From Sulfitobacter sp. (GTDB lineage: Bacteria; Pseudomonadota; Alphaproteobacteria; Rhodobacterales; Rhodobacteraceae): 64,000 nt of DNA. Both the position numbers and the translations under genes were made by a program. Below the pieces are notes generated by a model, which saw only the letters and a program-made list of their open reading frames with translations, made no database searches and had not been told where the DNA came from. This document shows, piece by piece, positions 34,975 to 63,164 of this stretch. The stretch is from positions 8,836 through 72,835 of the forward strand of contig JBAUHN010000355.1 of NCBI GenBank assembly GCA_049680295.1, written 5' to 3'. Positions within the stretch are counted from its first letter, which is position 1, and every line of letters starts with the position of its first letter.

Positions 34975-35020
34975 GGCTTTGGGAGATACAGGTTTAACGC
35001 GGAACGCGTTAATGTCTGGC

Positions 35021-39302: not shown

Positions 39303-39321
39303 GGGGGTGAGACCCGTCTCG

Positions 39322-39344: not shown

Positions 39345-39394
39345 AGGGTCGAACGGGCGCAGCCCCGGAGGCGGCGTTTCAGAGCGCCCCGCCT

Positions 39395-39490: not shown

Positions 39491-39600
39491 TTTTCTTCGG
39501 CCCACTGGACGGCCAATAACGGCTTTGCGGGACAAAACGATCATTGACGCGTCTCAAATGAATGGCTGGTTTCGATGTAACGCGACTAAAAATGGAATAA

Positions 39601-40044: not shown

Positions 40045-40080
40045 TAAATCCTTTCAACAAGTATCATTTCATAGATGGCG

Positions 40081-40960: not shown

Positions 40961-41164
40961 GTAATTACATTATTACACATATAAGACGTGTCAAGTGGAT
41001 TGCGCGTAAAGCTTTCGAAGCCACTGATTAGCCAAATACTGGGAAGCGGACTTTGCTACGAAGTGCAGCATCCGTCACTCTGGGCTCAAACCGGCCATTG
41101 ACGTGACCATCGCCCGGGCTGCCGCCGGAGGGCGTGTATGCGGCGGATCACCGGACAATCCGCC

Positions 41165-41665: not shown

Positions 41666-41808
41666 AGAAAGACCCAGTCTGTTTTGTTGATAATTTCCGG
41701 CGCGTTGTTGCCGTTTTCAATCATGAGGTCGAGTGCAAAATACATGAAGGCCCGGAACAAAGCCGCAGGCGCCGGGCCAGTGCCTGCTTGCTTTACCCCA
41801 GCCAAACC

Positions 41809-43116: not shown

Positions 43117-43120
43117 AGCC

Positions 43121-44854: not shown

Positions 44855-45234
44855 AACCTGGGGTCTACCTGTGTTCGGGTCGTCAGTCTGATCGCCATAG
44901 GGCTCATTGGCCGACAAAGATACTATCTGCGCCCTAAAGGGAAACAATTCCACAAGGCATGAGCGGTTGTCCTCCAGCCAGAGGGGGCCATCTGAGCAGA
45001 GGACCGCCACTTCGCAGGGATTCGCCTCTCGGTTTAGGGCAAGAGGTTTGCGCATTCAACTTTCGATGGAAATTACCACAGTATCAAGGCCTGTCACTGC
45101 CTCAAAAGCACCGGAGGCTTTGTTGCACTGGTTTGCAAACACAGTTATAATCGGCGCATAATTTTCTTTTGTTAAAGAACCGCTTTCATCGCTGACAGCA
45201 GCGATACGGGCCTGTGAATTTAAGGGGTAAGATC

Positions 45235-46203
45235 ATGACAGTTATGGCAGTGATAAAACGGATTGGGTTTTGCCTGTCCATGGCGGTTCTGGCGGCCTGT
45301 CAGGCGGGGGCGGCCAGCGATCTTCCCAACGCAGCAGGCGCCACCAGCGCGGCCCCGACCACAGATATTGCCCCGACACTGGCGCGCAGCCCCGACGCGC
45401 GCCGCCTGAACCTGCGCGTCATCCAATCAGGTCACAGCCTGACCGATCCGATCCCCGAGATTCTGCGCGGCATGGTCAGCGCCCGTGGCATCCAGAACCC
45501 GGTCATCGACCGATCCACCATTCCCGGCAGCCCGATGAGCTGGCGTTGGGACAACGCACCCGGATACGGCGAACCTGACGCGCGCGCCGACATCGGCAAA
45601 TACGAAGTGCTGGTGCTGACCGAAGGGGTGTCGATGTCGTTGACCCTGCCGCATCACAAATCCGATGAACTGGCTTTGCGCTGGTTCAAAAACACATGGT
45701 CCAAAGGCAACAATGGCAAAGGCGCCGAAACCATCCTTTATGCGTCCTGGGTCCATATCACCAGCGGCCCGAACTGGGAAAACCCCTATAAAGACCCCGA
45801 AGGCAATATCCCGTTCCGCAAGCGGCTGCCGCTGGAGTTCGCGCGCTGGGAACATGTGGCCAAATACGTCAATGCCAACCGCCCCAAGGGATCGCCCGCG
45901 ATGCGCATCATCCCCGGTCCTTTGCTGATGGCCGCCCTTTATGACGCAATTCAGGCCGGTAGGGCACCGGGGCTGACCAACATCTCGGATGTGTTCGAGG
46001 ATGAAATCCACGTCAACGATAAGGGCGCCTATTTTATCGCACTGGCACATTATGCTGTGATTTACGGCCAGAACCCGCGTGGATTGCCCTATAATCTTGG
46101 ATTGGCGCGACCGCCCAGCCGTGACCTTGCCCTGTGGATGCAGGATCTGGTCTGGAAAGTTGTGACAGATTACAAAGGCGCGGGCGTGCGGGCCTCTGGA
46201 TAA
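45235..46203 (+). CDS. Lipoprotein, SGNH-like hydrolase candidate (paralog 1 of the pair bracketing the PKS/NRPS locus)
   Basis: Lipobox AVLAAC, GHSL block (IQSGHSLTD) and C-terminal DEIHVND (DxxH). About 35-40% identity by eye with 62232-63164 across all blocks. Confidence 0.7.
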   Translation: MTVMAVIKRIGFCLSMAVLAACQAGAASDLPNAAGATSAAPTTDIAPTLARSPDARRLNLRVIQSGHSLTDPIPEILRGMVSARGIQNPVIDRSTIPGSPMSWRWDNAPGYGEPDARADIGKYEVLVLTEGVSMSLTLPHHKSDELALRWFKNTWSKGNNGKGAETILYASWVHITSGPNWENPYKDPEGNIPFRKRLPLEFARWEHVAKYVNANRPKGSPAMRIIPGPLLMAALYDAIQAGRAPGLTNISDVFEDEIHVNDKGAYFIALAHYAVIYGQNPRGLPYNLGLARPPSRDLALWMQDLVWKVVTDYKGAGVRASG

Positions 46204-46439: not shown

Positions 46440-49400
46440 ATGGACGGTTCTGATCAAGATATTCCGGTAAACGACAACGACATCGCTATCGTTGGTATGG
46501 CAGCGCATCTTCCGGGTGCGCGCACCATTGGCGATTACTGGGACAACCTGCGGGGTGGCGTCGAATCGATCCGCAAACTCACCCCCGAAGAACTGCGCGC
46601 CGCCGGTGAGCCTGAACATATTTCAGGCCGTCCCGATTATGTGCCCTATGCTGCCGTGCTTGAAGGCTTTGAAACATTTGACGCCGAATTCTTTGGTTTT
46701 TCCCCCAAAGAAGCCGCGATCATGGACCCGCAGCACCGCCAGTTTCTGGAGGTCGCCTGGGCCGCGCTGGAAAACGCGGGCCACCCGCCTGAAAACACCC
46801 CCGGACCGGTGGGCGTTTTTGCCGGCTGCGGCATGGGCAGCTATTTCTATTTCAACGTCTGTTCAAACCCGGATCTGGTCGACAATGTCGGCATGTTCCT
46901 GCTGCGCCACACCGGCAACGACAAGGATTTTCTGGCCACACGTCTTAGCCACACACTGGACCTCAAAGGCCCCAGCGTGAACATGCAGACCGCCTGTTCG
47001 ACATCACTGGTGACCACCCATTATGCCTGTCAGGCGCTGATGAACGGCGAATGTGACATGGCGCTGGCGGGGGGTGTGACGATCGAATTGCCCCACGCGC
47101 GCGGCTATCTTTACAAAGAAGGCGAAGTCCTGTCGCCGGATGGTCATTGTCATGCCTTTGATCACCGCGCCCAGGGCACGGTTTTTGGATCAGGGGCGGG
47201 CGTTGTTGTGCTGCGCCGTCTCGCGGACGCGATTGCCGATGGCGATCACATCTGGGCGGTGATCAAGGGCACGGCGATCAACAATGATGGCGCCGCCAAA
47301 GCCGGGTATCTGGCGCCTTCCGTCGATGGGCAAGCCGCCGCCATTGCCGAGGCGCATATGATGGCCGGCACCCCGGCCGACACCATTGATTACATCGAAT
47401 GTCACGGCACCGGCACCTATCTGGGCGACCCGATCGAGGTTGCGGCCCTGACACAAGCCTTTGCCGAGACCACGGACGATCAGGGTTTTTGCCGGATCGG
47501 GTCGGTCAAAACCAACATTGGCCACCTTGATACGGCGGCCGGTGTCGCCAGCCTGATCAAAACCAGCCTGTCGCTGCACCACAAGCAAATCCCGCCCTCG
47601 CTGGGCTATGAGGCCCCAAACCCGTCGATTGATTTCGATGGCAGCCCCTTTGTCGTCAATGACAAGCTGACCGACTGGGCGTCGCACAAAGGTCCGCGCC
47701 GGGCCGGGGTAAATTCACTGGGTGTGGGCGGAACCAATGCCCATGTTGTCCTGCAAGAAGCGCCGATGCGCGCCCCATCAGAAGATTCCGACTGGCCGTT
47801 TCAGATCTTGACCGTCTCGGGCCGCACCAAGGCCGCTTTGGACGGCAATGCCGCAGCCCTGGCCGCCCATCTGCGCGCAAACCCTGACCAATCGCTGGCC
47901 GATATCGCCTGGACCCTCAAAGAGGGCCGTCGCGCCTTTGAAAAACGCCGGGTGATTGTGGCCGCAGACCACGCAGAGGCGGCACAGCTGCTGGAAGAAA
48001 ACGATCCGCGCCGGGTGTTCACCCATACGCTGGTCGATGACGCCCCCGAATCCGTCTTTATGTTCCCCGGTGGCGGCGCCCAATACGCCGGCATGGCCCG
48101 CGATCTTTATGAGACCGAGCCGGTGTTCCAGGAATGGATGGACCGGGGTCTCGATATTCTGCAGCCCAAGCTCGATTACGACATCCGGGCGATCTGGCTG
48201 CCGGGTGCGGCAGATCACGCCAGCGCCGAGGAACGTCTGAAAACGCCATCCGTGCAATTGCCGTTGATCATGATCGTGGAATATGCGCTGGCGCAGCTTT
48301 GGATGTCCTGGGGTGTCAAACCCGACGTGCTTGTTGGCCATTCGATGGGCGAGAACACTGCCGCGTGTGTCGCCGGTGTGATGTCGTTTGAGGATTGCAT
48401 CGGTCTGGTGCATCTGCGCGGTCAGCTGTTTGATACCGTGGCCCCCGGGGGCATGCTCAGCGTGCCCTTGCCTGCTGCTGAACTGGAACCTTTGCTGGGC
48501 GACGATCTGGATCTGGGCGCGATCAACGCGCCGGACCTCAGCGTCGCCACAGGCCCGCAGGCCGCCTTGGACGTGCTGGAGGAGGTCCTGAAAGCCCGCG
48601 AGGTCGACTGCCAGCGGATCGGCATCAATATTGCCGCCCATTCGCGCATGTTAGAGCCTATTTTGGAGCGTTTCGGCGCCTATCTGCGTTCGATCACGTT
48701 AAACGCGCCGCAAATCCCTATTGTCTCAAACCGCAGCGGGCAGATGATGACGGATGCGCAGGCCATGGACCCTGACTATTGGGTCGGCCATTTGCGTCAC
48801 ACCGTGCGCTTTGCCGATTGCATCACCACGCTTGCGACAGACGCCACCCCCCGCATCTTTATTGAGGTCGGACCGGGCAAGGCGCTGTCGTCGCTGACCG
48901 GCATGCATGACAAGGTCAGCGCCAATCAGGTCATAGGCAGCCTGCGCCATCCCGATGACACCACAGCCGATGACGCCTATTTCATGGCGATGCTGGGCCG
49001 GGTCTGGGCGGTTGGCGGTGAATTCGACTGGGCGCAGATCTGGGGCGAGGCACGGCGCAACCGTGTGCCGCTGCCGGGATACGCCTTTCAGCGCGCGCCC
49101 TATTTCATTGAACCGGGCAGCAACCAGACCCAAAGTCAGGCCCAATGGCTGACCCGTACCGATGATGTGGGCGACTGGGGCTACCGCCCGGCCTGGGTGC
49201 CGCGCTATGCCGCCTGTGATCTGGATGTCACCCATGATCTGAAAGACGCCGAGACGCAGACATGGCTGGTCTTTGAAGACAACACCGGTCTGTGTACCGG
49301 CATCTCTGAGCGCCTGCGCGGTGCGGGCCAGCGTGTGGTCACCGTCACCCCCGGCGACGCCTTTGTGAAAACCGGCGACGACAGCTATGTGATTGCCCCT

Positions 49401-52400
49401 GAACGGGGGCGCGAAAACTATGATCAGCTGATCGGTGATCTGATCGCCCAAGATAAGGCACCCACCCGCATTCTGCACGGCTGGCTGGTCACCGGGGACG
49501 AAAGCTTCCGCCCCGGCAGCAGCTTTTTCCATCGCAATCAGGAACAGGGCTTCTACAGCCTGTTGTTCCTGGGCCAGGCCATCGGCGGCGAAGATCTGGC
49601 AATGCCTGTGCATATGACGGTTCTGACATCGGGGGCCATGCAGGTCAGCAACGAGGCGCTGCGCTATCCTGATAAATCCACCGTCATGGGACCTGCACGG
49701 GTGCTGCCGCAGGAATTTCCGGGGCTCACCACAACGGTGCTTGATCTGGATCTGCCGCTGGCTGCCAAAGGCCGGCGCAAGGGTCAGATCGCGCCGCAAA
49801 TGAACCGGCTGATTGATCAGACCCTCGAAGATCTGATTGCCGCACCGGCCAATATCACCGCCGCCCTGCGCGGTGAAAAACGTTATGAACTGTCGGTGCG
49901 CAAACTGGAGATACCAGAGCCTGACAAGGGTGATTTGCCCCTGCGCGACAAAGGTGTCTATATGATCACCGGCGGCTTTGGCGGCATTGGCCTGACCATC
50001 GCCCGCGATCTGATCACCACCCATTCGGCCCGCATTGTGCTGCTGTCACGCAGCGCCATGCCGCCGCGCGATCAATGGGATCAGGTGCTGCACCAGAACG
50101 CGCCGCAAGACCCTGTTGTGCGCCGCATCCGCGCCATTCAGGACCTCGAAAACCTGGGCGGCGAAGTGCTGTGCATCGCCGCCGACGTCAGCAACGTCGA
50201 AGACATGCGCGACGCGGTGACCCAGACCCGCGACGCCTTTGGCGACATCAACGGTGTGATCCATGCCGCAGGGCTGATTGCCGATGCCCCGATCATGGGT
50301 AAATCCACCATGGAGATCGAGGACGTGCTCACGCCCAAGGTCCATGGCACCCATGTGCTGGAAAGCATCTTTCCCGATGGCACGCTGGACTGGCTGGTGC
50401 TGTTCTCGTCAACGTCAACCGTGACCACGCCCGCAGGTCAGGTCGATTATGTCGCCGCCAACGAATATCTGAATGCCTATGCCAAATCGCGCAAGGGCGA
50501 CAAAACCCGGGTGCTGGCGATCAACTGGGGGGTCTGGTCCGAGGTCGGCATGGCCGCGGATGCGATGCTGGCACGGTCCGGCAGCGCCACGCCGCCGCCT
50601 TCTGATCCGGCCCATGTCCCGATGCTGGACGCCGCCACCTTTGGCCCGGCCCATAACCGGGTCTTTACCGCCACATATACCGCCAAGGACCGCTGGTTCC
50701 TGGATGAACACCGCACCAAAGCAGGCGACGCACTGTTGCCCGGCACCGGCTATCTGGAACTGGCCGCCGAAGCGCTGGAGGCGCAGGGCGAAACCAGCCC
50801 GTTTGAAATTCGCGATCTCTATTTCCTGCGCCCGCTGGCTGTGGGCGATGACGTGGCCCAAAACATCCGTCTGCGGCTGCCGCGCAGCGATGTCGGCTAT
50901 GATTTCTCGGTGCAAAGCAGCGATACGGACGCCTTTGAGATCAACGCCCAGGCCAGCCTGTCCCTGCTGCCGATGGAGACCCCCGAGGCGGTGGATATCG
51001 CGGCCCTGCGCGCGCGCTGCACAGTGGCGGCCACTGCGGATGCAGGTGCCGCCATCACCTCGCGGCAAGAAGAACATCTGAACTTTGGCCCGCGCTGGCG
51101 GGTGCTGATGTCGACCGCTTATGGCGACAACGAAGGTCTGGCCGATCTGAAACTGTCAGATGCCTATCAGGGCGATCTGGACGATGGCTATGTGCTGCAC
51201 CCCGGTCTGATGGATCTGGCCACCGGCTGGGCGATGGATCTGATCCGCGACTACCAGCCCACCAACCTGTGGGTACCGGTGTCTTATGGCTCTGTCAAAG
51301 TCTACCGCGATCTGCCGCGCGAGGTGGTCAGCTGGGTCCGCAATGCCGGTGACAACCACGCCGGCGGCCAGATGGCCAGCTTTGATGTCACCATCATGGC
51401 CCCCGATGGCACCGTCTGCGTCGAGATCAAAGGCTTCTCGATCCGGCGCATGGACAGCGTTGCCGATTTCGCCAAAACCGAAAACGCCGCCGTCGCACAG
51501 ATAGACGAGGACGCACCGCGCCCCTTGTCACCTGCCGAAGAACGGCTGCGGCACAATATCTCGCAGGGCATCAAACCGCATGAAGGCTCGGATGCGTTTT
51601 TCCGCGCGCTGGCCTCATCGGCGCCACAGGTCATCGTGTCTTCGCTGGATCTGGATTTGCTGACCGCGCAAGTCGCCGAAAGCTCGGCGGTGCCGGAAAG
51701 CTCCGAGCAGACCTTCCAGCGGCCGGAACTGGATTCCGAATACGCCGCCCCCGCCAATGACATCGAGGAAAAACTGGCCAGCATCTGGCAGGATTTGCTG
51801 GGTGTCGATCAGGTCGGCGTCGAAGACAGCTTTTTCGACCTCGGGGGCCATTCGCTGATCGCGGTGCGGCTGTTTGCGCAGGTGCGCAAGGCCTATAGTG
51901 TCGATTTTCCGATCTCGGTGCTGTTTGAAGCGCCAACCATCCGCAAATGCGCTGAAATGATCGCCGCACGCGGTGTGGCCACATCCTCGGATGCCGGTGA
52001 CAATGCCACCGCAGCGCCCGAAACCGCCACCCGCCGCTTTACCCATCTGGTGCCGATGCACGCAGGCGAGGCCGGACCGCAAACGCCGTTCTTTCTGGTT
52101 GCGGGCATGTTTGGCAACGTGCTGAACCTGCGCCATCTGGCGCATCTTCTGGGCGCGGACCGGCCATTCTACGGGTTGCAGGCGCGCGGGCTTTACGGCG
52201 ATGAGGCGCCCCATACCTCCCTGGTTGAGGCGGCCACCGATTACATCGCTGAAATCCGTGCCGTGCAGCCGCATGGGCCTTATATGGTTGGCGGATTTTC
52301 CGGCGGCGGCATCACCGCCTATGAGATCGCACAACAATTGACAGCCATGGGCGAAGAAGTATCGGTTCTGGTGATGCTCGACACACCGCTGCCGGTGGCA

Positions 52401-52913
52401 GAGCCTGTGACCCTGCGTGACCGGCTTATGATCCAATGGATTGAGCTGCGCAAAAAAGGCCTGAACTATCCGCTGCAATGGGCCAGAAACCGCATTGCAT
52501 GGGAACTCTCCAAGCGCCGCGGTGACGCGGACGGCGATGACATGCCCGCCAATCAGTTCCACAACACCGAAATCGAAGCCGCGTTCATGGAAAGCGTGCG
52601 GTCTTACCAGGTCAAACCCTGGAACGGCCCATTGGCAATGATGCGCCCGCCCTTGGTTGGCACCTGGGAAGTCGCCCCAGGCCGCTGGATCAATGATGAA
52701 CGTGACTATGTGCTGCATGACAATGGCTGGACCGGCTGGGCGCCCAAAATCGAAGTGTTCGAAGTGCCCGGAGACCACGATTCCATGGTGTTAGAGCCGA
52801 ATGTACGGGTGCTTGGCGCCCGGATGAAGCGCTGTATTGAGGCGGCAGGTCGCAGCCCCGGCGTCGCACCCGTCTCCGCAGGCCTGCGCACCATTAAAAA
52901 GGCAGCAGAATAA
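46440..52913 (+). CDS. Type I polyketide synthase, KS-AT-KR-DH-T-TE
   Basis: KS: TACSTSLV, ECHGTGT, KTNIGHLDTAAG. AT: GHSMGE..R..IAAHS. KR: GGFGGIGL, HAAGLIAD, S..YVAANEYL. DH: HRTKAGDALLP and HPGLMD. Carrier: FFDLGGHSL. TE: GGFSGGG, LDTP, GDHDSM. Confidence 0.92.
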   Translation: MDGSDQDIPVNDNDIAIVGMAAHLPGARTIGDYWDNLRGGVESIRKLTPEELRAAGEPEHISGRPDYVPYAAVLEGFETFDAEFFGFSPKEAAIMDPQHRQFLEVAWAALENAGHPPENTPGPVGVFAGCGMGSYFYFNVCSNPDLVDNVGMFLLRHTGNDKDFLATRLSHTLDLKGPSVNMQTACSTSLVTTHYACQALMNGECDMALAGGVTIELPHARGYLYKEGEVLSPDGHCHAFDHRAQGTVFGSGAGVVVLRRLADAIADGDHIWAVIKGTAINNDGAAKAGYLAPSVDGQAAAIAEAHMMAGTPADTIDYIECHGTGTYLGDPIEVAALTQAFAETTDDQGFCRIGSVKTNIGHLDTAAGVASLIKTSLSLHHKQIPPSLGYEAPNPSIDFDGSPFVVNDKLTDWASHKGPRRAGVNSLGVGGTNAHVVLQEAPMRAPSEDSDWPFQILTVSGRTKAALDGNAAALAAHLRANPDQSLADIAWTLKEGRRAFEKRRVIVAADHAEAAQLLEENDPRRVFTHTLVDDAPESVFMFPGGGAQYAGMARDLYETEPVFQEWMDRGLDILQPKLDYDIRAIWLPGAADHASAEERLKTPSVQLPLIMIVEYALAQLWMSWGVKPDVLVGHSMGENTAACVAGVMSFEDCIGLVHLRGQLFDTVAPGGMLSVPLPAAELEPLLGDDLDLGAINAPDLSVATGPQAALDVLEEVLKAREVDCQRIGINIAAHSRMLEPILERFGAYLRSITLNAPQIPIVSNRSGQMMTDAQAMDPDYWVGHLRHTVRFADCITTLATDATPRIFIEVGPGKALSSLTGMHDKVSANQVIGSLRHPDDTTADDAYFMAMLGRVWAVGGEFDWAQIWGEARRNRVPLPGYAFQRAPYFIEPGSNQTQSQAQWLTRTDDVGDWGYRPAWVPRYAACDLDVTHDLKDAETQTWLVFEDNTGLCTGISERLRGAGQRVVTVTPGDAFVKTGDDSYVIAPERGRENYDQLIGDLIAQDKAPTRILHGWLVTGDESFRPGSSFFHRNQEQGFYSLLFLGQAIGGEDLAMPVHMTVLTSGAMQVSNEALRYPDKSTVMGPARVLPQEFPGLTTTVLDLDLPLAAKGRRKGQIAPQMNRLIDQTLEDLIAAPANITAALRGEKRYELSVRKLEIPEPDKGDLPLRDKGVYMITGGFGGIGLTIARDLITTHSARIVLLSRSAMPPRDQWDQVLHQNAPQDPVVRRIRAIQDLENLGGEVLCIAADVSNVEDMRDAVTQTRDAFGDINGVIHAAGLIADAPIMGKSTMEIEDVLTPKVHGTHVLESIFPDGTLDWLVLFSSTSTVTTPAGQVDYVAANEYLNAYAKSRKGDKTRVLAINWGVWSEVGMAADAMLARSGSATPPPSDPAHVPMLDAATFGPAHNRVFTATYTAKDRWFLDEHRTKAGDALLPGTGYLELAAEALEAQGETSPFEIRDLYFLRPLAVGDDVAQNIRLRLPRSDVGYDFSVQSSDTDAFEINAQASLSLLPMETPEAVDIAALRARCTVAATADAGAAITSRQEEHLNFGPRWRVLMSTAYGDNEGLADLKLSDAYQGDLDDGYVLHPGLMDLATGWAMDLIRDYQPTNLWVPVSYGSVKVYRDLPREVVSWVRNAGDNHAGGQMASFDVTIMAPDGTVCVEIKGFSIRRMDSVADFAKTENAAVAQIDEDAPRPLSPAEERLRHNISQGIKPHEGSDAFFRALASSAPQVIVSSLDLDLLTAQVAESSAVPESSEQTFQRPELDSEYAAPANDIEEKLASIWQDLLGVDQVGVEDSFFDLGGHSLIAVRLFAQVRKAYSVDFPISVLFEAPTIRKCAEMIAARGVATSSDAGDNATAAPETATRRFTHLVPMHAGEAGPQTPFFLVAGMFGNVLNLRHLAHLLGADRPFYGLQARGLYGDEAPHTSLVEAATDYIAEIRAVQPHGPYMVGGFSGGGITAYEIAQQLTAMGEEVSVLVMLDTPLPVAEPVTLRDRLMIQWIELRKKGLNYPLQWARNRIAWELSKRRGDADGDDMPANQFHNTEIEAAFMESVRSYQVKPWNGPLAMMRPPLVGTWEVAPGRWINDERDYVLHDNGWTGWAPKIEVFEVPGDHDSMVLEPNVRVLGARMKRCIEAAGRSPGVAPVSAGLRTIKKAAE

Positions 52914-52915
52914 CG

Positions 52916-53929
52916 ATGTCTCACCCCACAGTTCTGACCATCATCCTGAACTATAAAACCGCCCCGATGACCCAGAAATCCATCGCCGCAGCGCGGGCCG
53001 CGATGGCCGGGTTATCCGGTGAAATCACCGTCGTTGATAACGCCTCACAGGACGGATCCTTCGAGACGCTGTCGGCGTATGTGGCAGGCCTTGGCCCCGA
53101 TCCGGACATCCCGGTCCGGGTCCTGGCATCGGGCCGCAATGGCGGCTTTGGGGCGGGCAATAACGTCGGCATCCGCGCCGGGCTGAAGGATGGATCGAAA
53201 CCCGATTACGTCTATGTGCTGAACTCTGACGCCTTCCCGGACAAAGACGCCATTCGTCTGCTGCTGGCGCATCTGCAAACCCACCCCGACGCGGGTTTTG
53301 CCGGCAGTTACATCCATGGCGAAGACGGCGACACCCATCTGACGACATTCCGGTTTCCCTCCGTGTTCAGCGAATTCGAAGGGGCGATCCAGTTTGGCCC
53401 GGTCAGCCGTCTGCTGGCCAAATATGCCGTGCCGGTCAAAACCCCGGACACGGTCACACCCGTCGACTGGCTGGCAGGCGCCAGCATCATGATGCGCCAA
53501 AGCGTGCTGGATGAAATTGGCATCTTTGACGAAGAATTCTTTCTCTATTTTGAGGAAACGGACCTGTGCCGCCGCGCCCATCTGGCCGGGCATCAGACCG
53601 TGTTTGTGCCGCAAAGCCGTGTGGCCCATATCGGGTCGGTGTCCACGGGCATGAAAACATGGGGGCGGGTGCCGGGCTACTGGTTTGCCTCGCGGCGCTA
53701 TTATTTCACCAAGAACCACGGCCGGCTTTATGCGGGTCTGGCCACGCTGGCGCATCTGGCGGGGGGCGGGCTGCACTGGCTGCGCTGTCTGGTGACGCGC
53801 CGCGCCAACAACACGCCGTCGCATTTCCTGCGCACCTTGGCCTGGCATGATCTGACCGCCCGGCGCCGCGAGAATCCAAAACCGCAACCTGCGCTGACAT
53901 CCACGCCCCATCCAACGACCGGAGAATAA
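52916..53929 (+). CDS. Glycosyltransferase family 2 (embedded between the PKS and NRPS genes)
   Basis: LTIILNYKTAPMT..VVDNASQDGS..LNSDA..FLYFEETDLCRR. Starts 2 nt after the PKS stop and ends 4 nt before the NRPS start. Confidence 0.85.
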   Translation: MSHPTVLTIILNYKTAPMTQKSIAAARAAMAGLSGEITVVDNASQDGSFETLSAYVAGLGPDPDIPVRVLASGRNGGFGAGNNVGIRAGLKDGSKPDYVYVLNSDAFPDKDAIRLLLAHLQTHPDAGFAGSYIHGEDGDTHLTTFRFPSVFSEFEGAIQFGPVSRLLAKYAVPVKTPDTVTPVDWLAGASIMMRQSVLDEIGIFDEEFFLYFEETDLCRRAHLAGHQTVFVPQSRVAHIGSVSTGMKTWGRVPGYWFASRRYYFTKNHGRLYAGLATLAHLAGGGLHWLRCLVTRRANNTPSHFLRTLAWHDLTARRRENPKPQPALTSTPHPTTGE

Positions 53930-53933
53930 CCCC

Positions 53934-56900
53934 ATGTCCGATTTCAATTCCATCGTCATCGGCAACGAATCCCTTGTGATTCAATGCGGTGACATGCTGT
54001 TGCAGGGCGGGCATAAGATCAGCGCCCTTGTCACCCGCAACCCGGACGTGCGCGCCTGGGGCGAAAAACAGGGTCTAAGCGTGCATAGGCCGGGGTCTGA
54101 TCTGGCGGATCGGCTGGGGGATACCCCCTGTGACTGGCTGTTTTCCATCGCCAACCTCGATATTATTCCGCAGGCCCTGCTGGACCGCGCCGCCAAAGGG
54201 GCGATCAACTTTCACGATGGGCCCCTGCCGCGTTATGCCGGTCTGAACGCACCGGCCTGGGCGCTGATCAACGGCGAGGCGCAGCACGGCATCACCTGGC
54301 ACCTGATCGAAGGCGGCATCGACGAAGGCGATATCATCGAGCAACGCAGCTTTGACATCGCCCCCCATGACACTGCCCTGACGATGAACACCAAATGCTA
54401 TGTCGCGGCGATCGAAAGTTTCGGCGCGGTGATATCGGCCGTGGCAGATGGTCTGCCCGGCCGCCGCGCTCAGGACCTGTCCCAGCGCAGCTATTTCGCC
54501 AAAGACGCCCGGCCCGCCGCTGCCGCACGGCTGGATTTCAATACATCCGCCAAAGATCTGGTGGCCTTGGTGCGGGGCCTTGATCATGGCGACTACTGGA
54601 ACCCGCTGTCTTGCCCCAAGATCGAAGCGAATGGCCAAATCTGGCTGATCGGCGCCGCCTCTGTCGCCGAAGACAGCCCCGATGCGGCCCCCGGTACGGT
54701 CCTTGCCAGCGACGGCGACACACTGACTGTTGCCACCGGTGCAGGCGCCATTGCGCTGACAAATATCAGACCCTGCACAGGCGATGCGGACCTGCCACAG
54801 GCAGGCGATGTCCTCTCCTCGCCCTCGGCAGCCGAGGCAACGGCCCTTGATGCCGTCCTGGCCAAAACCCTGCGCGCAGAACCCTATTGGCGCAAACGTC
54901 TTGAAACCCTGACCCCGGCGCAGGCCCCTTTGATGCAGGCCACGGATGCCAAGGGCGTCGAGACGCGCAAATTAAATCTGCCCGCGGCACTAGGCGCGGA
55001 TGATCAGGCCGCAGTGCTGGCCACATTGGTCCTGCGCCTTGGCGATGACAGCACCATTGATCTGGCCTGGCAGGACGCAGGAACCACCCATAACGCGCCA
55101 AAACCCTATGTCAGAGACTGGGTGCCGCTGCGGTTTGAGACAAAAGACAGCTTTGACGCCGCCAGCACCGCACTCGCCGATGAGATCGCAACCGCGCGCA
55201 GCAAGGGCGGTTTTGCCTGCGATCTGCCCGCGCGTATTCCGGGTCTGGATGCTGCGCAAATGCCGCAGGTCGGGGTGACATCCGGCCGTGAAATCATTTC
55301 CGGCACGGTTCTGACCCTTGCCACCGGTGACGCCCCCGCCCTGATCGCGGATGCCGCACAGATGCCCGCCGCCCTGCTGGATCTGATCGCAGCGCGTCTT
55401 GAAACCCTTGGCACAGCCCTTGCCATGCCTGACGCGCGCGGCCAGGCGCTTAGTGCCCTGCCGATCCTGCCGGATGCAGAACGCCAGCACATCCTGCAGG
55501 GCCTGAACGACACAAAAACCGCCTACCCGGCAGATGCCTGCATTCATCAGCTGTTTGAAGCCCAGGTCGCCCGCACGCCGGACGCCGAAGCACTGGTGTT
55601 TGAAGGCGAGGTGCTAAGCTATGCCGCGCTGGATGCGCGCGCCAATCAGGTGGCCCATGTGTTGCGCGATATGGGCGTCGGCCCCGGCAAAACCGTCGGG
55701 CTGCATTTGCGCCGCTCGACCGAATTGCTGGTGGGCGCCCTGGCGATCTTTAAGGCCGGGGGCGCTTATGTGCCGCTGGACCCAGGCTTCCCCTCTGATC
55801 GCATTGCCTACTACATCGAAGACAGCGCCGCACCGGTGATCATCACCCAGAGCGATCTGGCAGCGGGCCTGCCCGCGCATAGTGCCAAAGTGCTTGTGTT
55901 AGAGAGTGATCCGCGCATTGCCGCCGCCGCCACAGACACGCCCGACAGCGGTGTTTCCGCCTCTGATCTGGCCTATCTGATCTACACTTCCGGCTCGACC
56001 GGCAAGCCCAAGGGCGTCATGGTTGAACACCGCAATGTATCGAATTTCTTTACCGGCATGGACGCCCATATCAGCCATGACCCTGCGGGCGTCTGGCTGG
56101 CCGTGACCAGCCTGTCGTTTGATATCTCGGTGCTGGAACTGTTCTGGACCCTTGCGCGGGGTTTCAAACTGGTGCTTAGCAGCGATGAAGACCGCGGTCT
56201 GATCTCAAACGGGGGGCTGCAGGTATCCGACACGCCGATGGATTTCAGTCTCTATTACTGGGGGAATGACGATGCTGTCGGCACCGAGAAATACAAATTG
56301 CTGCTGGAAGGCGCGAAATTCGCCGATGACCACGGCTTTTGCGCTGTCTGGACGCCTGAACGGCATTTCCACGCCTTTGGCGGGCCTTATCCCAACCCGT
56401 CCGTGACCGGTGCGGCGGTGGCTGCCGTGACCAAAAATCTGTCGGTGCGCGCCGGTAGTATCGTCGCCCCCCTGCACCATCCTGCGCGCATTGCCGAAGA
56501 ATGGGCGGTGATTGACAATCTGACGGGGGGCCGTGTCGGGCTGGCCATGGCCTCGGGCTGGCAGCCCGATGATTTTGTGCTGCGCCCCGAAAACACGCCG
56601 CCACACAATAAAACCGCCCTGATAGAGACGATCAAGACCGTGCGCCGGCTTTGGGCGGGCGAAGCGGTTGAATTCCCCCGCCAGGATGGCGCGATGCACG
56701 CGGTTGTCACCCAGCCGCGCCCGATTTCGGACAAAATGCCGATGTGGGTCACCTCTGCCGGCAACCCCGCCACCTGGGTTGAGGCGGGCGAATTGGGCGC
56801 CAATGTTCTGACCCACCTTCTGGGCCAAAGCGTGGATGAGGTCGCCGAAAAGATCAAAATCTACCACAAGGCGCTGCGCAGCGCCGGGCATGATCCGGCC

Positions 56901-58562
56901 GACCACACCGTCACGCTGATGCTGCACACCTATATCGCCGACAGCCGCGATGCCGCGCGCGACGTCGCCCGCGAGCCGATGAAAAGCTATCTGCGCAGTG
57001 CCGCCGGGCTGATCAAACAATACGCCTGGGCCTTTCCCGCCTTTAAGCGCCCTGAGGGGGCCAAAAACGCCTTTGATCTTGATCTGGGCAGTCTGGAACC
57101 GGACGAGCTGGAAGGCATCCTCGATTTCGCCTTTGAGCGGTATTTCAACGATTCCGGCATGTTTGGGACTGTTTCGGACTGTGTGGAACGGGTCGAAGCG
57201 CTGAAAAAAATCGGCGTTGGCGAAGTCGCCTGCCTGATCGAATATGGCATCGCCACCGACACCGTTCTTGAGGGTCTGCGCCCGCTGGCCGAGGTGTTGC
57301 GCCAGTCCAATCAGGCCACTGAACTGGACGCGGATGATTTCTCCATCGCCGCCCAGATCATCCGCCACAAGGTCACGCATATGCAGTGCACCCCCTCAAT
57401 GGCGCAGATGATCACCATGAACGACGAGGCGCGCAGCGCTTTGGCGCGGGTGCCGCATGTGCTGGTTGGCGGCGAGGCACTGTCGGGTGCGCTGGCCCAG
57501 GAATTGCACCAGATCACCGGCAAGCCGGTCCAGAATATGTATGGTCCCACGGAAACCACGATCTGGTCCACAACCGAACGGACAACAGGCGGCGAGGGTG
57601 TGATCAACATCGGCAAACCCATCGCCAATACCCAGGTCTATGTGCTGGACGAGGACCGCCAGCCCGTGCCCATCGGCACCGCAGCCGAGCTTTATATCGG
57701 CGGCGATGGGGTGACGCGCGGCTATTGGCAGCGCCCTGATTTGACAGACGAAAGATTCGTCGCTGATCCCTTTATAGAGCCTGATATGGCCGCCCCCGGC
57801 GGCGCGCGCATGTACCGCACCGGCGATCTGGTGCGCTGGCGCAGCGATGGGCGGCTTGATTTTCTGGGCCGCATTGACCATCAGGTCAAACTGCGCGGCT
57901 ACCGGATTGAACTGGGCGAAATTGAAGCGGCAATTGACGGCTTTGCAGGCGTGCGCCAATCGGTGGTGATGCCCCGCGAAGACACCCCCGGCCTGACCCA
58001 GCTGGTGGCCTATGTGACCACCACCGCCCCGGTGGCCGAGGCAGCGTTGCGCAAACATATCGGCGCCGGACTGCCTGACTATATGGTACCCGCACGTGTT
58101 GTAACGCTGGACAGCTTTCCGCTGACCCCCAACAAAAAGATCGACCGCAAGGCGCTGCCGGCCCCCATGGCCGTGCAGGCTGCACCCCCCGCGACAGCCA
58201 GCGCCCCGGCCCCGGACGGATCATCGGCCCAGAGGATCGCCGACATCTGGTCACAGATATTGGGCGTCGCCAACATCGGTGCGCGCGATAACTTCTTTGA
58301 TCTGGGCGGGCATTCACTGCTGGCGGTACAGGCCCACCGTGAAATACGCACCACCCTGTCGGTGCCAAAGCTCAGCATCACGGACATTTTCCGCTTTCCA
58401 ACCCTGCAGGCCCTTGCCGCCCAGGTGGATGCGAAATCCGGCGTGTCTGAACCTGCGTCCAAACCCGATGACGCCCCCGCCGTGGCCGAACGGGCCGCAG
58501 CCCGCAGCGATGCCATGTCGCGCCGCAAGGAAATGAGGGCGAAACGTCACGCCCGCTCATGA
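53934..58562 (+). CDS. NRPS starter module: formyltransferase-like domain, C-domain C-lobe remnant, A domain (Gly code) interrupted by a luciferase-like monooxygenase, and T domain
   Basis: F: INFHDGPLPRYAG + GGIDEGDII. A: LSYAALDARAN (A1), LKAGGAYVPLD-type (A2), YLIYTSGSTGKPKG (A3), FDISVLE (A4), then a 360-aa LLM insert, then NMYGPTETT (A5), GELYIGG..GYW (A6), YRTGD (A7), GRIDHQVKLRGYRIELGEIE (A8), LPDYMVP (A9), NKKIDRK (A10). T: FFDLGGHSL. Confidence 0.92.
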   Translation: MSDFNSIVIGNESLVIQCGDMLLQGGHKISALVTRNPDVRAWGEKQGLSVHRPGSDLADRLGDTPCDWLFSIANLDIIPQALLDRAAKGAINFHDGPLPRYAGLNAPAWALINGEAQHGITWHLIEGGIDEGDIIEQRSFDIAPHDTALTMNTKCYVAAIESFGAVISAVADGLPGRRAQDLSQRSYFAKDARPAAAARLDFNTSAKDLVALVRGLDHGDYWNPLSCPKIEANGQIWLIGAASVAEDSPDAAPGTVLASDGDTLTVATGAGAIALTNIRPCTGDADLPQAGDVLSSPSAAEATALDAVLAKTLRAEPYWRKRLETLTPAQAPLMQATDAKGVETRKLNLPAALGADDQAAVLATLVLRLGDDSTIDLAWQDAGTTHNAPKPYVRDWVPLRFETKDSFDAASTALADEIATARSKGGFACDLPARIPGLDAAQMPQVGVTSGREIISGTVLTLATGDAPALIADAAQMPAALLDLIAARLETLGTALAMPDARGQALSALPILPDAERQHILQGLNDTKTAYPADACIHQLFEAQVARTPDAEALVFEGEVLSYAALDARANQVAHVLRDMGVGPGKTVGLHLRRSTELLVGALAIFKAGGAYVPLDPGFPSDRIAYYIEDSAAPVIITQSDLAAGLPAHSAKVLVLESDPRIAAAATDTPDSGVSASDLAYLIYTSGSTGKPKGVMVEHRNVSNFFTGMDAHISHDPAGVWLAVTSLSFDISVLELFWTLARGFKLVLSSDEDRGLISNGGLQVSDTPMDFSLYYWGNDDAVGTEKYKLLLEGAKFADDHGFCAVWTPERHFHAFGGPYPNPSVTGAAVAAVTKNLSVRAGSIVAPLHHPARIAEEWAVIDNLTGGRVGLAMASGWQPDDFVLRPENTPPHNKTALIETIKTVRRLWAGEAVEFPRQDGAMHAVVTQPRPISDKMPMWVTSAGNPATWVEAGELGANVLTHLLGQSVDEVAEKIKIYHKALRSAGHDPADHTVTLMLHTYIADSRDAARDVAREPMKSYLRSAAGLIKQYAWAFPAFKRPEGAKNAFDLDLGSLEPDELEGILDFAFERYFNDSGMFGTVSDCVERVEALKKIGVGEVACLIEYGIATDTVLEGLRPLAEVLRQSNQATELDADDFSIAAQIIRHKVTHMQCTPSMAQMITMNDEARSALARVPHVLVGGEALSGALAQELHQITGKPVQNMYGPTETTIWSTTERTTGGEGVINIGKPIANTQVYVLDEDRQPVPIGTAAELYIGGDGVTRGYWQRPDLTDERFVADPFIEPDMAAPGGARMYRTGDLVRWRSDGRLDFLGRIDHQVKLRGYRIELGEIEAAIDGFAGVRQSVVMPREDTPGLTQLVAYVTTTAPVAEAALRKHIGAGLPDYMVPARVVTLDSFPLTPNKKIDRKALPAPMAVQAAPPATASAPAPDGSSAQRIADIWSQILGVANIGARDNFFDLGGHSLLAVQAHREIRTTLSVPKLSITDIFRFPTLQALAAQVDAKSGVSEPASKPDDAPAVAERAAARSDAMSRRKEMRAKRHARS

Positions 58563-59254
58563 CCCCGGTTCCCGGGTTGGAAGCGGCCCTGCGCAGCCAG
58601 CTGGGCGGTCAGATCTCGGTGGCTTTGGCAGACCCCAAAGCCCCAACCGGCAGATTGTTCCCCGCTGAAGCGGCCGCCATGGCAGCGGCGACGCCAAAAC
58701 GCCTGTCGGAGTTTACCGCCGGACGCGGCGCGGCGCGGCGCGCGCTGGCCGCCATCGGCGTGGACCCTCAGCCCATCCTGCACGCCCCCGACCGTGCACC
58801 GATCTGGCCCGCGGGTGTGACCGGCAGCATCACCCATTGCGACATTTTATGTCTCTCTGCCGTGGCCAGGACCGACACCATCCGCAGCCTTGGCATTGAT
58901 CTGGAACCCGACGCAGACCTGCCCCGCGATCTGGAAGACATCGTCTGTACATCGGCCGAGCGGGGCTGGCTGGACAGCCACCCCGCAGACAGACGCGGGA
59001 CACTGGCCAAGCTGATCTTTTGCGCCAAGGAAAGTGCCTATAAGGCGCAATATCCCCTGACACAGAGCCTGTTTGGCTTTGAGACCTTTGAAATTACCCT
59101 TGATCCGGAGGCGGGGCAATTCACTGCAACCTTCCAAAACCCGGTCGGCGGGTTTGCAGCCGGTGACGTGCTACAGGGGCGGTTTCTGCGGCAACAGGGT
59201 CTGATTTTCACCAGCGTGGTGATCCCACACTCTGACAGCCCGGTGTTCGGCTGA
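58559..59254 (+). CDS. Sfp/EntD-type 4'-phosphopantetheinyl transferase
   Basis: WPAGVTGSITHC, SLGIDLEP and FCAKESAYKA motifs. ATGA overlap with the NRPS stop. Confidence 0.88.
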   Translation: MTPVPGLEAALRSQLGGQISVALADPKAPTGRLFPAEAAAMAAATPKRLSEFTAGRGAARRALAAIGVDPQPILHAPDRAPIWPAGVTGSITHCDILCLSAVARTDTIRSLGIDLEPDADLPRDLEDIVCTSAERGWLDSHPADRRGTLAKLIFCAKESAYKAQYPLTQSLFGFETFEITLDPEAGQFTATFQNPVGGFAAGDVLQGRFLRQQGLIFTSVVIPHSDSPVFG

Positions 59255-59366
59255 CGCAAACGACACAAACCTGCGGCTCAATCTGTTCCAGACGGCCATT
59301 TTAACTGTTTGTTAAGACCTTGAGACCCTGGTGTTGCGCACGAGGTTTCACAGGGTAAATGCAAAC

Positions 59367-60878
59367 ATGCGCGACATAAAAGCAGCGGTTTTTATCATGG
59401 CCTGTCTGTTCCATATTGCCCCTGTGGAACAGGCCCGCGCCCAGGAAGGCGCGCTGGATCTGGAACTCAGCACCACATACGAGCGGTGGACGTTACCCGG
59501 TAACGAAAAGATGGGCATGGCCAATGTCAGGCTGTCGGAATTTTCCGGGGAGTATTTCAATTATGGCATTGAATCCTACACCGCAGTGGCGGGGGAGCGT
59601 GGCGGCTTCATCACAATCGGTGCGCATGCTGGATTGCGCTTTCCCGTCAGCCAGAGACTGTCACTGGACAGTGGGCTTTCTGTGGGGGCCGGGGGCGGGC
59701 GTGGAGGGTATTTCCTAAGTGGCGGCGGCCTGATGCTGCGTGGGCACGCAGGTCTGAAATACGCGGCTCCCATCGGGCAGTTGGGTCTGGGTGTCAGCTA
59801 TGTAAGCTTTCCTGAAAATGGGGATATAGACAGTGCGCAAGCCTATATTTCCTATTCTCTGCCCTTCTCGGTGGCGGGCAGACCTGGCCTGAATTTCGGC
59901 ACCGCTGCGCAGGCTGGCAATGCAATTCCGCGCAGAAAAGATTCCAAAACACATCAGTTTTCACTGGTGACGCGGTCGGTGATGGCCAACAGACAGGTTC
60001 TGAAAGACGCCAGCGCAACGGTCTTTCAGGAAGATTTCAAAATGCTGGGGGTCAGGTGGCGGACGCATTTGACTGACACATGGATCGCCCAGTTTGAAAC
60101 AGTCGGAGGCGGCGGAGGCAACAGCGCGGGGTACATGCATCTTCTGGCCGGGTTGGGTGCGCGGCAATCCATCACCAGAAACCTGTCGGTCTATGAAACC
60201 CTGTCCATCGGGGGCGGTGGCGGCGGCGGCGTGCCCACGGGGGGCGGGTTTTTGGTAGATGCCGCCATCGGCGTTCAGTATCTGTTTCCCAATTCTGCCT
60301 TTATCGATGTGTCCGCGTCCAAATTTCTTGCGCCTTCAACAGCGTTTTCAAACACCACTTTAAATCTGAACTTTGGCTACCAGTTGGGCACAGCCAGACC
60401 CGCGGATACGGGCAGTGTGGACAGGCGCCTTGCCTATCCGGTCAGAATTCGGACCGTCCAGCAGAACTATAAAGGCACACATCCAAACTGGCGAAACCGG
60501 CCCGCGCAGCCCGTCGATAACCTTGGGTTTCAGATTGACTATTTTATGTCTCCCAACATGTTTCTCACCGGGCAGGCCATTGGCGCATGGGGCGGAGACG
60601 CCGGGGCCTATATGACGGGTCTGGTCGGCGCAGGTGTGCATAAAGATTTGATCGGCAACCTTTTTGTCGAAGCAGAGGGTCTTGTTGGTGTTGCAGGCGG
60701 CGGCGGTCTGACCGTCGGTAGCGGCGCCGTGGGACAAGTGAATTTGGGTCTTGGATATCAATTTACACCCCGTTTAAGTGCGATGGTCAGCACCGGAAAA
60801 ATCAAATCTTTTGACGGGGACTTTGAAGCAGATGTTCTGGGTGTCTCGCTCAACTACGATTTCACCCTGTTCTTTTAA
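59367..60878 (+). CDS. Predicted outer-membrane beta-barrel protein with three internal repeats and poly-Gly tracts
   Basis: Signal peptide ..APVEQARA/QEG, alternating-hydrophobic strands, terminal ..LNYDFTLFF (C-terminal Phe beta-signal), and Gly runs GAGGGRGG, GGGGG, GGGGGGG, AGGGG. Confidence 0.65.
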   Translation: MRDIKAAVFIMACLFHIAPVEQARAQEGALDLELSTTYERWTLPGNEKMGMANVRLSEFSGEYFNYGIESYTAVAGERGGFITIGAHAGLRFPVSQRLSLDSGLSVGAGGGRGGYFLSGGGLMLRGHAGLKYAAPIGQLGLGVSYVSFPENGDIDSAQAYISYSLPFSVAGRPGLNFGTAAQAGNAIPRRKDSKTHQFSLVTRSVMANRQVLKDASATVFQEDFKMLGVRWRTHLTDTWIAQFETVGGGGGNSAGYMHLLAGLGARQSITRNLSVYETLSIGGGGGGGVPTGGGFLVDAAIGVQYLFPNSAFIDVSASKFLAPSTAFSNTTLNLNFGYQLGTARPADTGSVDRRLAYPVRIRTVQQNYKGTHPNWRNRPAQPVDNLGFQIDYFMSPNMFLTGQAIGAWGGDAGAYMTGLVGAGVHKDLIGNLFVEAEGLVGVAGGGGLTVGSGAVGQVNLGLGYQFTPRLSAMVSTGKIKSFDGDFEADVLGVSLNYDFTLFF

Positions 60879-62231: not shown

Positions 62232-63164
62232 TTGCTGAGACGTCTCAAACGCCATAGCCCCGCTTTTCTTTTATTGCTGCTTGCCGCCTGTGGCAGCCTG
62301 ACCCGCTGTAGCGGGCCCAAACCACTGGATCAGGCCGCGTTTGACGCGCTTTATGCGACCCCGCAGGCCGTTGGCGCTGGTCCGCAAAAAACCTACCACA
62401 TTGGCCATAGTCTGGTCGGGCGTGACATGCCGGCAATGCTGGCGCAATTGGCCGGAGACGGGCATGGCTATGACAGCCAGCTTGGCTGGGGCAGTCCGCT
62501 GAAAGCGCATTGGGACCCGGATGAGGAAATCAACGGCTTTGACGTTGAAAACAACCACCCGCGTTACCGCGACGCAATGGAGGCGGTGACATCGGGGGAG
62601 TACGACGCGCTGGTGCTGACCGAAATGGTCGAAATCCGCGACGCGATCAAATATTTCAACTCAGGCGATTACCTGCACCGCTGGGCGCAGGCCGGATGGG
62701 GGGCAAACCCCGAAATGCGGGTCTATTTATACGAAACCTGGCATCCGCTGGACGATCCCGAGGGCTGGCTGGAGCGCATAGACAGCGATCTGGCCCGCTA
62801 TTGGGAGGGCGACATCCTGCGCCGCGCGCTGGCCTATGATGACATGCCGCATCCGGTCTATGTGATCCCGGCCGGACAGGTGCTGGCCGCTTTTGTCCGC
62901 GCGATTGAGGCGACCCCCGTCGATGGCCTGTCTGCGCGGGCCGATCTTTTCAGCGATGACATCCACATCAACGATCTGGGGGCCTATCTGGTGGCGCTGA
63001 CGCATTATGCGGTGCTTTATCAGAAATCCCCCGTTGGGTTGCCTCATGCGCTCAACCGTGCCGACGGAACCCCGGCCACAGCCCCCGGTGAAGGCACCGC
63101 ACGATTGATGCAGGAAACGGTCTGGCGCGTGGTGCAGGCCTATCCGCCCGCAGGGCTGCCCTAG
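62232..63164 (+). CDS. Lipoprotein, SGNH-like hydrolase candidate (paralog 2)
   Basis: TTG start, lipobox LLLAAC, YHIGHSLVG, YDALVLTE, DDIHINDLGAYLVALTHYAVLY. Paralog of 45235-46203. Confidence 0.7.
   Translation: MLRRLKRHSPAFLLLLLAACGSLTRCSGPKPLDQAAFDALYATPQAVGAGPQKTYHIGHSLVGRDMPAMLAQLAGDGHGYDSQLGWGSPLKAHWDPDEEINGFDVENNHPRYRDAMEAVTSGEYDALVLTEMVEIRDAIKYFNSGDYLHRWAQAGWGANPEMRVYLYETWHPLDDPEGWLERIDSDLARYWEGDILRRALAYDDMPHPVYVIPAGQVLAAFVRAIEATPVDGLSARADLFSDDIHINDLGAYLVALTHYAVLYQKSPVGLPHALNRADGTPATAPGEGTARLMQETVWRVVQAYPPAGLP

Follow-up and report, generated by a model that had tools for sequence, protein, structure and literature searches.

In nonribosomal peptide synthetases (NRPSs), the formylation (F) domain of LgrA acts on valine bound to a thiolation (T) domain, and CongA and OzmO, F-A(Gly)-T proteins with a glycine-activating adenylation (A) domain, pass on to a ketosynthase (KS) (PMC4504003, PMC10510592). 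OzmP and CongE, which are N-type ATP pyrophosphatases with an SGGKDS motif, are encoded beside ozmO and congA (PMC4504003). Another chemistry on glycine is known from MtaG and MelG, which have the order C-A-MOX-A-T-TE (C, condensation; MOX, monooxygenase; TE, thioesterase) and hydroxylate glycine at C-alpha, a step proposed to lead to a terminal amide and an alpha-keto acid (PMC11411415). In the Roseobacter lineage, a four-gene cluster for an NRPS, a polyketide synthase (PKS), a glycosyltransferase and a 4'-phosphopantetheinyl transferase (PPTase) is given for 28 of 57 genomes, its product being called uncharacterised, in PMC4337385, which cites Martens et al. In P. inhibens the PKS and NRPS lie two locus tags apart (PMC4062626), and later genome-mining papers still give the hybrid NRPS/T1PKS cluster as unknown (PMC10584327, PMC11595833). 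Here, a copy of this cluster is described from a stretch of 64,000 nucleotides (nt) of Sulfitobacter sp. DNA (contig JBAUHN010000355.1, positions 8,836 to 72,835), the whole of which is called the window. Its NRPS, encoded by the open reading frame (ORF) 53934-58562, is a single module of the type F-C'-A(MOx)-T, in which a formyltransferase stands where the condensation domain would have its catalytic N-lobe, C' is the remaining C-terminal lobe, and MOx is a monooxygenase embedded in the A domain.

Compared with these systems, the locus combines familiar parts in an unusual setting. Like LgrA, the NRPS has an N-terminal formyltransferase fold ahead of A-T, no working C domain and an aligned Asn/His/Asp core. 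Unlike LgrA, whose F domain of 193 amino acids (aa) abuts the A domain (PMC10510592), the F domain here has 290 aa and both Fmt subdomains and is followed by a 245-aa C-lobe; moreover, the predicted substrate is glycine and not valine, and the A domain carries a MOx. Because the compact layout with F abutting A is absent, and because similarity to LgrA is marginal compared with that to Fmt and ArnA, the domain should not be filed as LgrA-type; the module is nonetheless predicted to work like an initiation module with an NRPS formylation domain. An earlier interpretation of the same DNA from its letters (the sequence-only reading) had compared the protein with known F-A-T starter modules. An F domain ahead of A-T in a module with no working C domain is indeed what is found, whereas the LgrA-like layout gives way to F-C'-A-T with an embedded MOx. 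With the loaders OzmO and CongA and that of rhizopodin, the protein shares F-A-T with a glycine-predicted A domain and an adjacent PKS with intact KS residues (PMC4504003); unlike them, it has an embedded MOx and no PP-loop partner, and those pathways yield oxazoles. The glycine-specific A domain broken between motifs A4 and A5 by a luciferase-like monooxygenase is the arrangement of MtaG and MelG (PMC11411415), but here the protein has neither a complete C domain nor a TE, the TE is on the PKS, and the module starts the line instead of ending it. With a formyltransferase substituted for the catalytic N-lobe, glycine would be acylated by a folate-derived formyl group and not by an upstream chain. 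E. coli Fmt and the N-terminal domain of ArnA are the best matches over both subdomains and have the same catalytic triad; in contrast to them, the domain is fused into an NRPS and carries NFHDGPLPxxAG where they have N-x-H-G-S-L-L-P-x-x-R-G. The F domain alone is an ordinary feature, detectable by pipelines, and fragments of proteins of this kind carry the label 'formyltransferase family protein' in standard pipelines. No paper describing an F domain together with a luciferase-like MOx in an NRPS/PKS was found; Martens 2007, outside this search, may mention the F domain.

A complete formyltransferase domain at the head of the NRPS

Residues 1-290 of the NRPS form a complete, two-subdomain formyltransferase domain of the Fmt/ArnA type. 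The sequence-only reading had placed this fold at residues about 5-290 (53946-54803), and profile searches and structure prediction agree with it. Both Pfam subdomain models score above their cut-offs, Formyl_trans_N (PF00551) with 63.6 bits (E 2.5e-17, cut-off 26.1) and Formyl_trans_C (PF02911) with 28.5 bits (E 1.8e-6, cut-off 21.1), and the best profile and structure matches are all formyltransferases. In NCBIfam, residues 1-300 match formyltransferases only (PRK06988, ArnA, Fmt, PurN, sugar formyltransferases and PurU). Scores remain under the family cut-offs for the Fmt equivalog TIGR00460 (83.3 bits vs 201.5), ArnA NF005998 (98.7 vs 777) and PRK06988 (107.9 vs 316). A search of PDB sequences ranks E. 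coli Fmt first (4.1e-22, residues 39-294 on Fmt 51-300) and ArnA second, at about 2e-16; both alignments extend through the C-terminal subdomain. The F domain of LgrA matches at 8e-7 over the catalytic core only (residues 66-162).

Structure prediction gives the same picture. With 63 homologues as input, AlphaFold2 modelled residues 1-540 at a predicted local distance difference test score (pLDDT) of 94.5 and a predicted template modelling score (pTM) of 0.90. The best PDB matches found with Foldseek are the formyltransferase domain of ArnA and Fmt of several species (E about 5e-24), with target-normalised template modelling (TM) scores of 0.77-0.82 over about 310 aligned columns. The FDH hydrolase domain and sugar N-formyltransferases come next, and LgrA does not rank within the first 50 Foldseek matches of the F part.

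The active site is conserved across the family

Counted along the printed alignment coordinates, N92, H94 and D130 match N108, H110 and D146 of E. coli Fmt. The motifs INFHDGPLPRYAG (residues 91-103) and GGIDEGDII (residues 127-135), which the sequence-only reading had quoted as the sources of the catalytic Asn, His and Asp, lie exactly at these places, and its statement that the triad is intact is borne out. In the 63-sequence homologue alignment, N92, H94, D95, G96, P97, L98, P99, A102, G103 and D130 are invariant. A larger set was made of 72 full-length orthologues extracted from genome loci together with the window protein. In these 73 sequences, N92, H94 and D130 are unchanged in every row, and no substitution occurs in 31 of the catalytic subdomain's 190 columns; G132, also in the second motif, is invariant in both alignments. 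The proposed alignment to the N-x-H..SLLP..RG motif of Fmt thus stands for Asn and His but not for the remainder, as the literal 'SLLP' and 'RG' are replaced in the invariant family signature N-F-H-D-G-P-L-P-x-x-A-G. Because active-site and catalytic-subdomain columns are invariant, the F domain is under purifying selection and is not a remnant; it is apparently active. Mean identity to the window protein over the 73 sequences is 59% for the F catalytic subdomain, compared with 74% for the MOx and 35% for C'.

A condensation lobe, an interrupted adenylation domain and a carrier domain

Between the F and A domains lies a condensation-domain C-lobe, whose catalytic N-terminal partner has been replaced by the formyltransferase. 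Its identity relies on structure prediction and Foldseek, together with a 46-sequence profile compared with PDB sequences. Pfam on residues 290-539 alone gives no match, even at E up to 1. Modelled alone, C' has a pLDDT of 93.1, and Foldseek returns condensation-type domains of NRPSs only, with McyB C1 at 3.9e-10 and further matches to Txo1/2, the C domain of LgrA, the starter C domain (Cs) of RzmA and the X-domain of teicoplanin. These alignments cover about 250 columns, roughly half a C domain. The 46-orthologue profile aligns to the C-terminal ends of C domains, namely those of McyB (residues 406-477, E 1.7e-13), Txo2, Txo1 and McyA, and on into the C-A linker, and a second, weak alignment lies in the C-lobe. 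No HH dipeptide occurs in aa 291-535, and therefore no HHxxxDG. With this remnant only, the module has no working C domain, as the sequence-only reading had also held. The best explanation is that the C-lobe was kept as a scaffold on the A domain.

From Pfam, NCBIfam and the structure model, the complete domain order is F, C', the N-terminal part of the A domain, MOx, the C-terminal part of the A domain and T. The MOx belongs to the MupA/Atu3671 family TIGR04020 (471.9 bits vs a cut-off of 244) and also matches Bac_luciferase in Pfam (157 bits). It is inserted between A4 (FDISVLE, 729) and A5 (NMYGPTE, 1201), the A domain resuming from about residue 1134. With 35% invariant columns among the 73 orthologues, the MOx is the best-conserved part of the protein. 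The core motifs of the A domain are present, and its 10-residue code is DILQLGMIWK (DILQ[MLFY]GMIWK in the orthologues). With code positions taken by motif register against the GrsA numbering, this is the canonical glycine code. The A domain is thus predicted to be glycine-specific, in line with the glycine part of the sequence-only reading. In the T domain, Ser1461 is kept in 71 of the 73 rows, and the other two have gaps there.

The embedded MOx, the C-lobe remnant, the greater closeness to Fmt/ArnA than to LgrA and the identity of the cluster as a known one of the Roseobacter group were all absent from the sequence-only reading. The MOx probably alters what the starter becomes.

The module belongs to a conserved four-gene cluster

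The window genes at 46440-59254 are the conserved PKS/NRPS four-gene cluster of the Roseobacter group, with the same genes in the same order. The ATG of the NRPS has GGAG 9 nt upstream. The gene starts 4 nt past the stop codon of the family-2 glycosyltransferase (GT2) gene, and its end shares 4 nt with the start of the PPTase gene; this spacing indicates a tightly packed operon. The KS of the PKS has its Cys, His and His residues intact (QTACSTS, HGTGT, NIGH). A self-priming PKS of the KS-Q type was considered and rejected, as the KS has its Cys. The PKS (46440-52913) has an unusual domain order, with the ketoreductase (KR) ahead of the dehydratase (DH), and its carrier domain bears a DSFFDLGGHSL motif like that of a peptidyl carrier protein.

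Relatives were collected by a genome scan with one genome per species and two F-domain peptide patterns. The F-domain signature was confirmed in at least 588 loci/genomes among the species representatives searched, and the best 80 loci were examined. These are mostly from Paracoccaceae (Ruegeria, Primorskyibacter, Thalassovita, Leisingera, Shimia, Roseovarius and others) but also take in Hydrogenophaga and other Burkholderiales. With tblastn, the order PKS-GT2-[F-C'-A-MOx-A-T]-PPTase was found in 80/80 loci, wherever the contig was long enough: a PKS lies upstream of GT2-NRPS in all 80, a GT2 match lies between PKS and NRPS in 79, and, where the locus reaches far enough, a PPTase almost always comes after the NRPS. 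These four genes alone make up the conserved core. The window shares 42-52% identity with the 80 loci across F-C', 50-63% if F is taken by itself, and as much as 72% across the PKS. In 72 of the 80, a single unbroken ORF of about 1,400-1,620 aa encodes the NRPS. In Sulfitobacter albidus (CP073581.1, locus L083, 8001-12451), F-C' (522 aa) and A(MOx)-T (977 aa) are separate, overlapping ORFs in different frames, and so they are in Hydrogenophaga sp. (OZ260093.1, locus L084, 8001-12631; 552 and 1,028 aa). These are either true splits at the C'-A junction or frameshifts. In S. albidus no gene is called at the expected place of the PKS, and this copy may be decaying. A megablast search of the NRPS gene against PLSDB plasmids gave only partial matches in the MOx/A-domain part (72-74%; Parasedimentitalea, Aminobacter). 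When the GT2 sequence was looked up for identical copies, only two Logan metagenome assemblies contained it.

Beyond these loci, residues 1-290 were compared by phmmer with 1.84 billion cluster representatives (clusters at 50% identity), of which 1,435 match at an E of 1e-30 or below. Most of the full-length ones are about 1,450-1,600 aa long, the length of the F-C'-A(MOx)-T architecture. Four longer relatives carry the same F subtype, likewise about 260 aa away from the A domain. The subtype stands at the head of P0230 (F-A-T-C-A-T-C...T) and of P0244 (F-A-T-C), with an F identity of 38-65%. P0226 is F-C'-A(MOx, MT)-T (MT, methyltransferase), and here Pfam sees the last 55 positions of its Condensation model just ahead of the A domain. 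In P0199, a metagenomic protein of 2,167 aa with the order C-F-A-T-TE, the same F subtype follows a complete condensation domain. The coordinates of the module and the cluster genes are collected in Table 1.

Table 1. Positions of the NRPS, its domains and motifs, and the other cluster genes in the window
Feature	Position	Strand	Basis
NRPS gene, 1,542 aa	53934..58562	+	ORF list and translation; Pfam and NCBIfam domains
Formyltransferase catalytic (N-terminal) subdomain, aa 1-190	53934..54503	+	Formyl_trans_N; Rossmann-like strand/helix alternation in model
Motif INFHDGPLPRYAG, residues 91-103, catalytic N92 and H94	54204..54242	+	Aligns to Fmt I107-G119 (N108, H110)
Motif GGIDEGDII, residues 127-135, catalytic D130	54312..54338	+	Aligns to Fmt V143-L151 (D146)
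Formyltransferase C-terminal (beta-barrel) subdomain, aa 191-290	54504..54803	+	Formyl_trans_C at aa 197-280; model beta strands 229-276
C', condensation-domain C-terminal lobe and C-A linker, aa 291-535, no HHxxxDG	54804..55538	+	
Adenylation domain, N-terminal part, up to A4 (FDISVLE, aa 729-735)	55539..56228	+	AMP-binding aa 541-754
Luciferase-like flavin mononucleotide (FMN) monooxygenase (MOx), aa 771-1121	56244..57296	+	TIGR04020; Bac_luciferase
Adenylation domain, C-terminal part, A5 NMYGPTE to A10	57309..58193	+	TIGR01733, AMP-binding_C
Thiolation (carrier) domain, GGHSL, Ser1461	58230..58424	+	PP-binding 48.4 bits
Type I PKS, KS-AT-KR-DH-ACP-TE (AT, acyltransferase; ACP, acyl carrier protein), presumed acceptor of NRPS-bound starter	46440..52913	+	Pfam
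Family-2 glycosyltransferase (GT2)	52916..53929	+	Pfam Glycos_transf_2
Sfp/EntD-type 4'-phosphopantetheinyl transferase (PPTase)	58559..59254	+	4PPT_N and ACPS
o310, function-unassigned gene, possible accessory (fifth) cluster gene	62232..63164	+	Homologue after PPTase in relatives

Proposed function and alternatives

The position and conservation of the F domain suggest, with a probability of roughly 0.7, that it formylates T-bound glycine and so primes the line. The NRPS is read as a loading module because of the synteny of PKS, GT2, NRPS and PPTase in 80/80 loci, the packed or overlapping genes, the Cys of the KS and the TE on the PKS. With no C domain in the NRPS and the sole TE on the PKS, the line can be read co-linearly in one order only, NRPS before PKS. 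As to the acceptor, the strongest indirect evidence comes from the relatives in which the same F subtype heads multimodular NRPSs, which is the expected place for formylating the first carrier-bound amino acid. Formyl donor, acceptor, order of steps and product are what we infer in the following scheme. The A domain would activate glycine and load it on the T domain, which the cluster's own PPTase would have primed. Via N92, H94 and D130, the F domain would then N-formylate Gly-S-T from N10-formyl-tetrahydrofolate, in parallel to LgrA (Val) and to the roles proposed for CongA and OzmO (Gly). By analogy with MtaG and MelG, the embedded MOx would probably hydroxylate C-alpha of the N-formylglycyl thioester. 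The KS of the neighbouring PKS would accept the (hydroxy)formylglycyl thioester, and a single malonyl extension, ketoreduction and dehydration would follow, after which the TE would free the chain, and GT2 would probably add a sugar. Any specific downstream structure is doubtful.

Several points weigh against formylation of T-bound glycine as the priming step. The F domain is nearer to Fmt and ArnA than to LgrA, the biochemically proven NRPS F domain, and, as every NCBIfam match is under its family cut-off, it makes up a subfamily of its own; the case for the proposed activity is thus built on position and conservation and not on orthology. The place of the F domain in P0199, behind a complete condensation domain, sits badly with a strictly initiating role and also with N-formylation, which blocks the amine. 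The monooxygenase within the A domain makes it uncertain what becomes of the formyl group, and no report of the cluster's product was found in the searchable literature.

A wider proposal, put forward tentatively, is that F and MOx together carry out a chain-initiation chemistry not yet described, in which N-formylation makes glycine a substrate for C-alpha hydroxylation, and that F-C' was recruited independently. This would yield either an N-formyl-alpha-hydroxyglycyl starter open to glycosylation or, if formamide is lost, a glyoxylyl thioester. F-C' would then stand for a second class of NRPS formylation domain, Fmt/ArnA-like and grafted on a C-lobe, with more than 1,400 clusters.

The main rival is a cryptic role of formylation, which is judged unlikely: formylation would serve only to enable hydroxylation by the MOx, the hemiaminal would collapse with loss of formamide, and a glyoxylyl-S-T (alpha-oxo) starter would reach the PKS, so that the final product would contain neither the formyl group nor the nitrogen. 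MtaG and MelG hydroxylate N-acylglycine and are proposed to bring about a subsequent dealkylation to amide and alpha-keto acid (PMC11411415), and the module has the form of an MtaG-type C-A(MOx)-T with F in place of the catalytic half of the C domain. The conservation of the MOx, the highest in the NRPS, also speaks for this route, but spending formyl-tetrahydrofolate just to deaminate glycine would be wasteful. Moreover, N-acyl-alpha-hydroxyglycines are fairly stable at neutral pH, and a separate lyase is needed for peptide amidation. The fusion of a formyltransferase and a monooxygenase within one glycine module could also point to hydroxamate chemistry, with N-hydroxylation of glycine by the MOx and formylation of the N-hydroxy group by F giving a hadacidin-like, metal-binding N-formyl-N-hydroxyglycyl starter. 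Fmt-family enzymes that formylate N-hydroxy-amino acids are known, and Fmt-type enzymes making the N-formyl-N-hydroxyornithine of siderophores would be a parallel. This is very improbable, as the MOx is of the luciferase-like TIGR04020 family, whose analogues MtaG and MelG act on carbon (PMC11411415), and siderophore receptor or transport genes were not seen beside the cluster.

Other alternatives deny the F domain its carrier-bound glycine or take the product in another direction. That it acts on a substrate not bound to a carrier, such as an amino sugar as in ArnA and in cooperation with GT2, might be read from the presence of ArnA and sugar N-formyltransferases among the nearest structural and sequence matches and from the GT2 gene immediately upstream of the NRPS. 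However, F and A-T form one polypeptide, with F in front, in 72 of the 80 loci, and multimodular NRPSs that lack a MOx and close with more C, A and T domains begin with the same subtype. GT2 has no specific ArnC match in NCBIfam, and sugar chemistry like that of ArnA/ArnC was judged unlikely. A non-catalytic structural remnant was rejected, with N92, H94, D130 and 31 further columns invariant, and the two ideas taken together retain a very small probability. Conversion of N-formylglycine, once extended, to an oxazole by cyclodehydration, as in oxazolomycin and conglobatin, would follow the logic of OzmO and CongA, in which F-A(Gly)-T passes to a KS (PMC4504003). OzmO and CongA have no MOx, though, and the sequence-only reading's remark that the window holds no OzmP/CongE-like enzyme is upheld. 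A six-frame search of the 64 kb window for the SGGxDS PP-loop signature gave a single match in an open frame of 10 codons, which is not real; Pfam scans of 44 of the larger window ORFs showed no PP-loop enzyme, and no OzmP/CongE-like gene occurs in the conserved core of the 80 loci. In view of this absence, the oxazole route is scarcely probable at all.

Genes around the cluster

Relative to the Roseobacter-group cluster, the window copy has the additional gene o515 and a family-1 glycosyltransferase (GT1) gene between the PPTase gene and o310. The 515-aa ORF o515 (59331-60878, +) lies directly 3' of the PPTase gene; searches of Pfam, NCBIfam and PDB sequences gave no match for it, and neither did tblastn against the 80 related loci. 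A homologue of o310 (51-65% identity) directly follows the PPTase gene in about half of the 80 related loci and is also present in S. albidus. The products of o310 (62232-63164, +) and of the gene at 45214-46203 (+), which flank the cluster on either side, are paralogues (33% identity, E 1e-29) with no Pfam, NCBIfam or PDB-sequence match; the motif 'DDIHIND' may resemble block V of SGNH hydrolases.

Upstream, at 36528-45055 on the minus strand, lies a set like that of type I secretion, consisting of an outer-membrane efflux protein (36528-37913), an HlyD-family protein (41809-43116) and an ABC transporter (43121-45055), which is not conserved beside the cluster in the related loci. Polysaccharide-type genes occupy 20091-35000 (a Wzy_C O-antigen-ligase-like protein, a family-4 glycosyltransferase (GT4), an AT3-SGNH acyltransferase, two GT2 and a sulfotransferase), with further ones at 1984-5181 (a methyltransferase, a polysaccharide deacetylase and a GT4).

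Significance

A known type of domain is found here in an unusual setting. Three features are worth following: the F-C' graft, the pairing of formylation with an MtaG-type MOx on glycine, and a widespread marine biosynthetic gene cluster without a reported product. The cluster is present in about half of the sequenced Roseobacter-group genomes (28/57, PMC4337385), yet no report of its product was found. A formyltransferase predicted to act on glycine, an MtaG-type MOx and the absence of an oxazole enzyme together give concrete predictions for finding the metabolite, which concern mass shifts, labelling with 13C-formate and 15N-glycine, and the release of formamide or glyoxylate. The module offers a simple in vitro system. 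For NRPS engineering, the F-C' graft is of use as well, since it shows how an elongation module can be converted to initiation.

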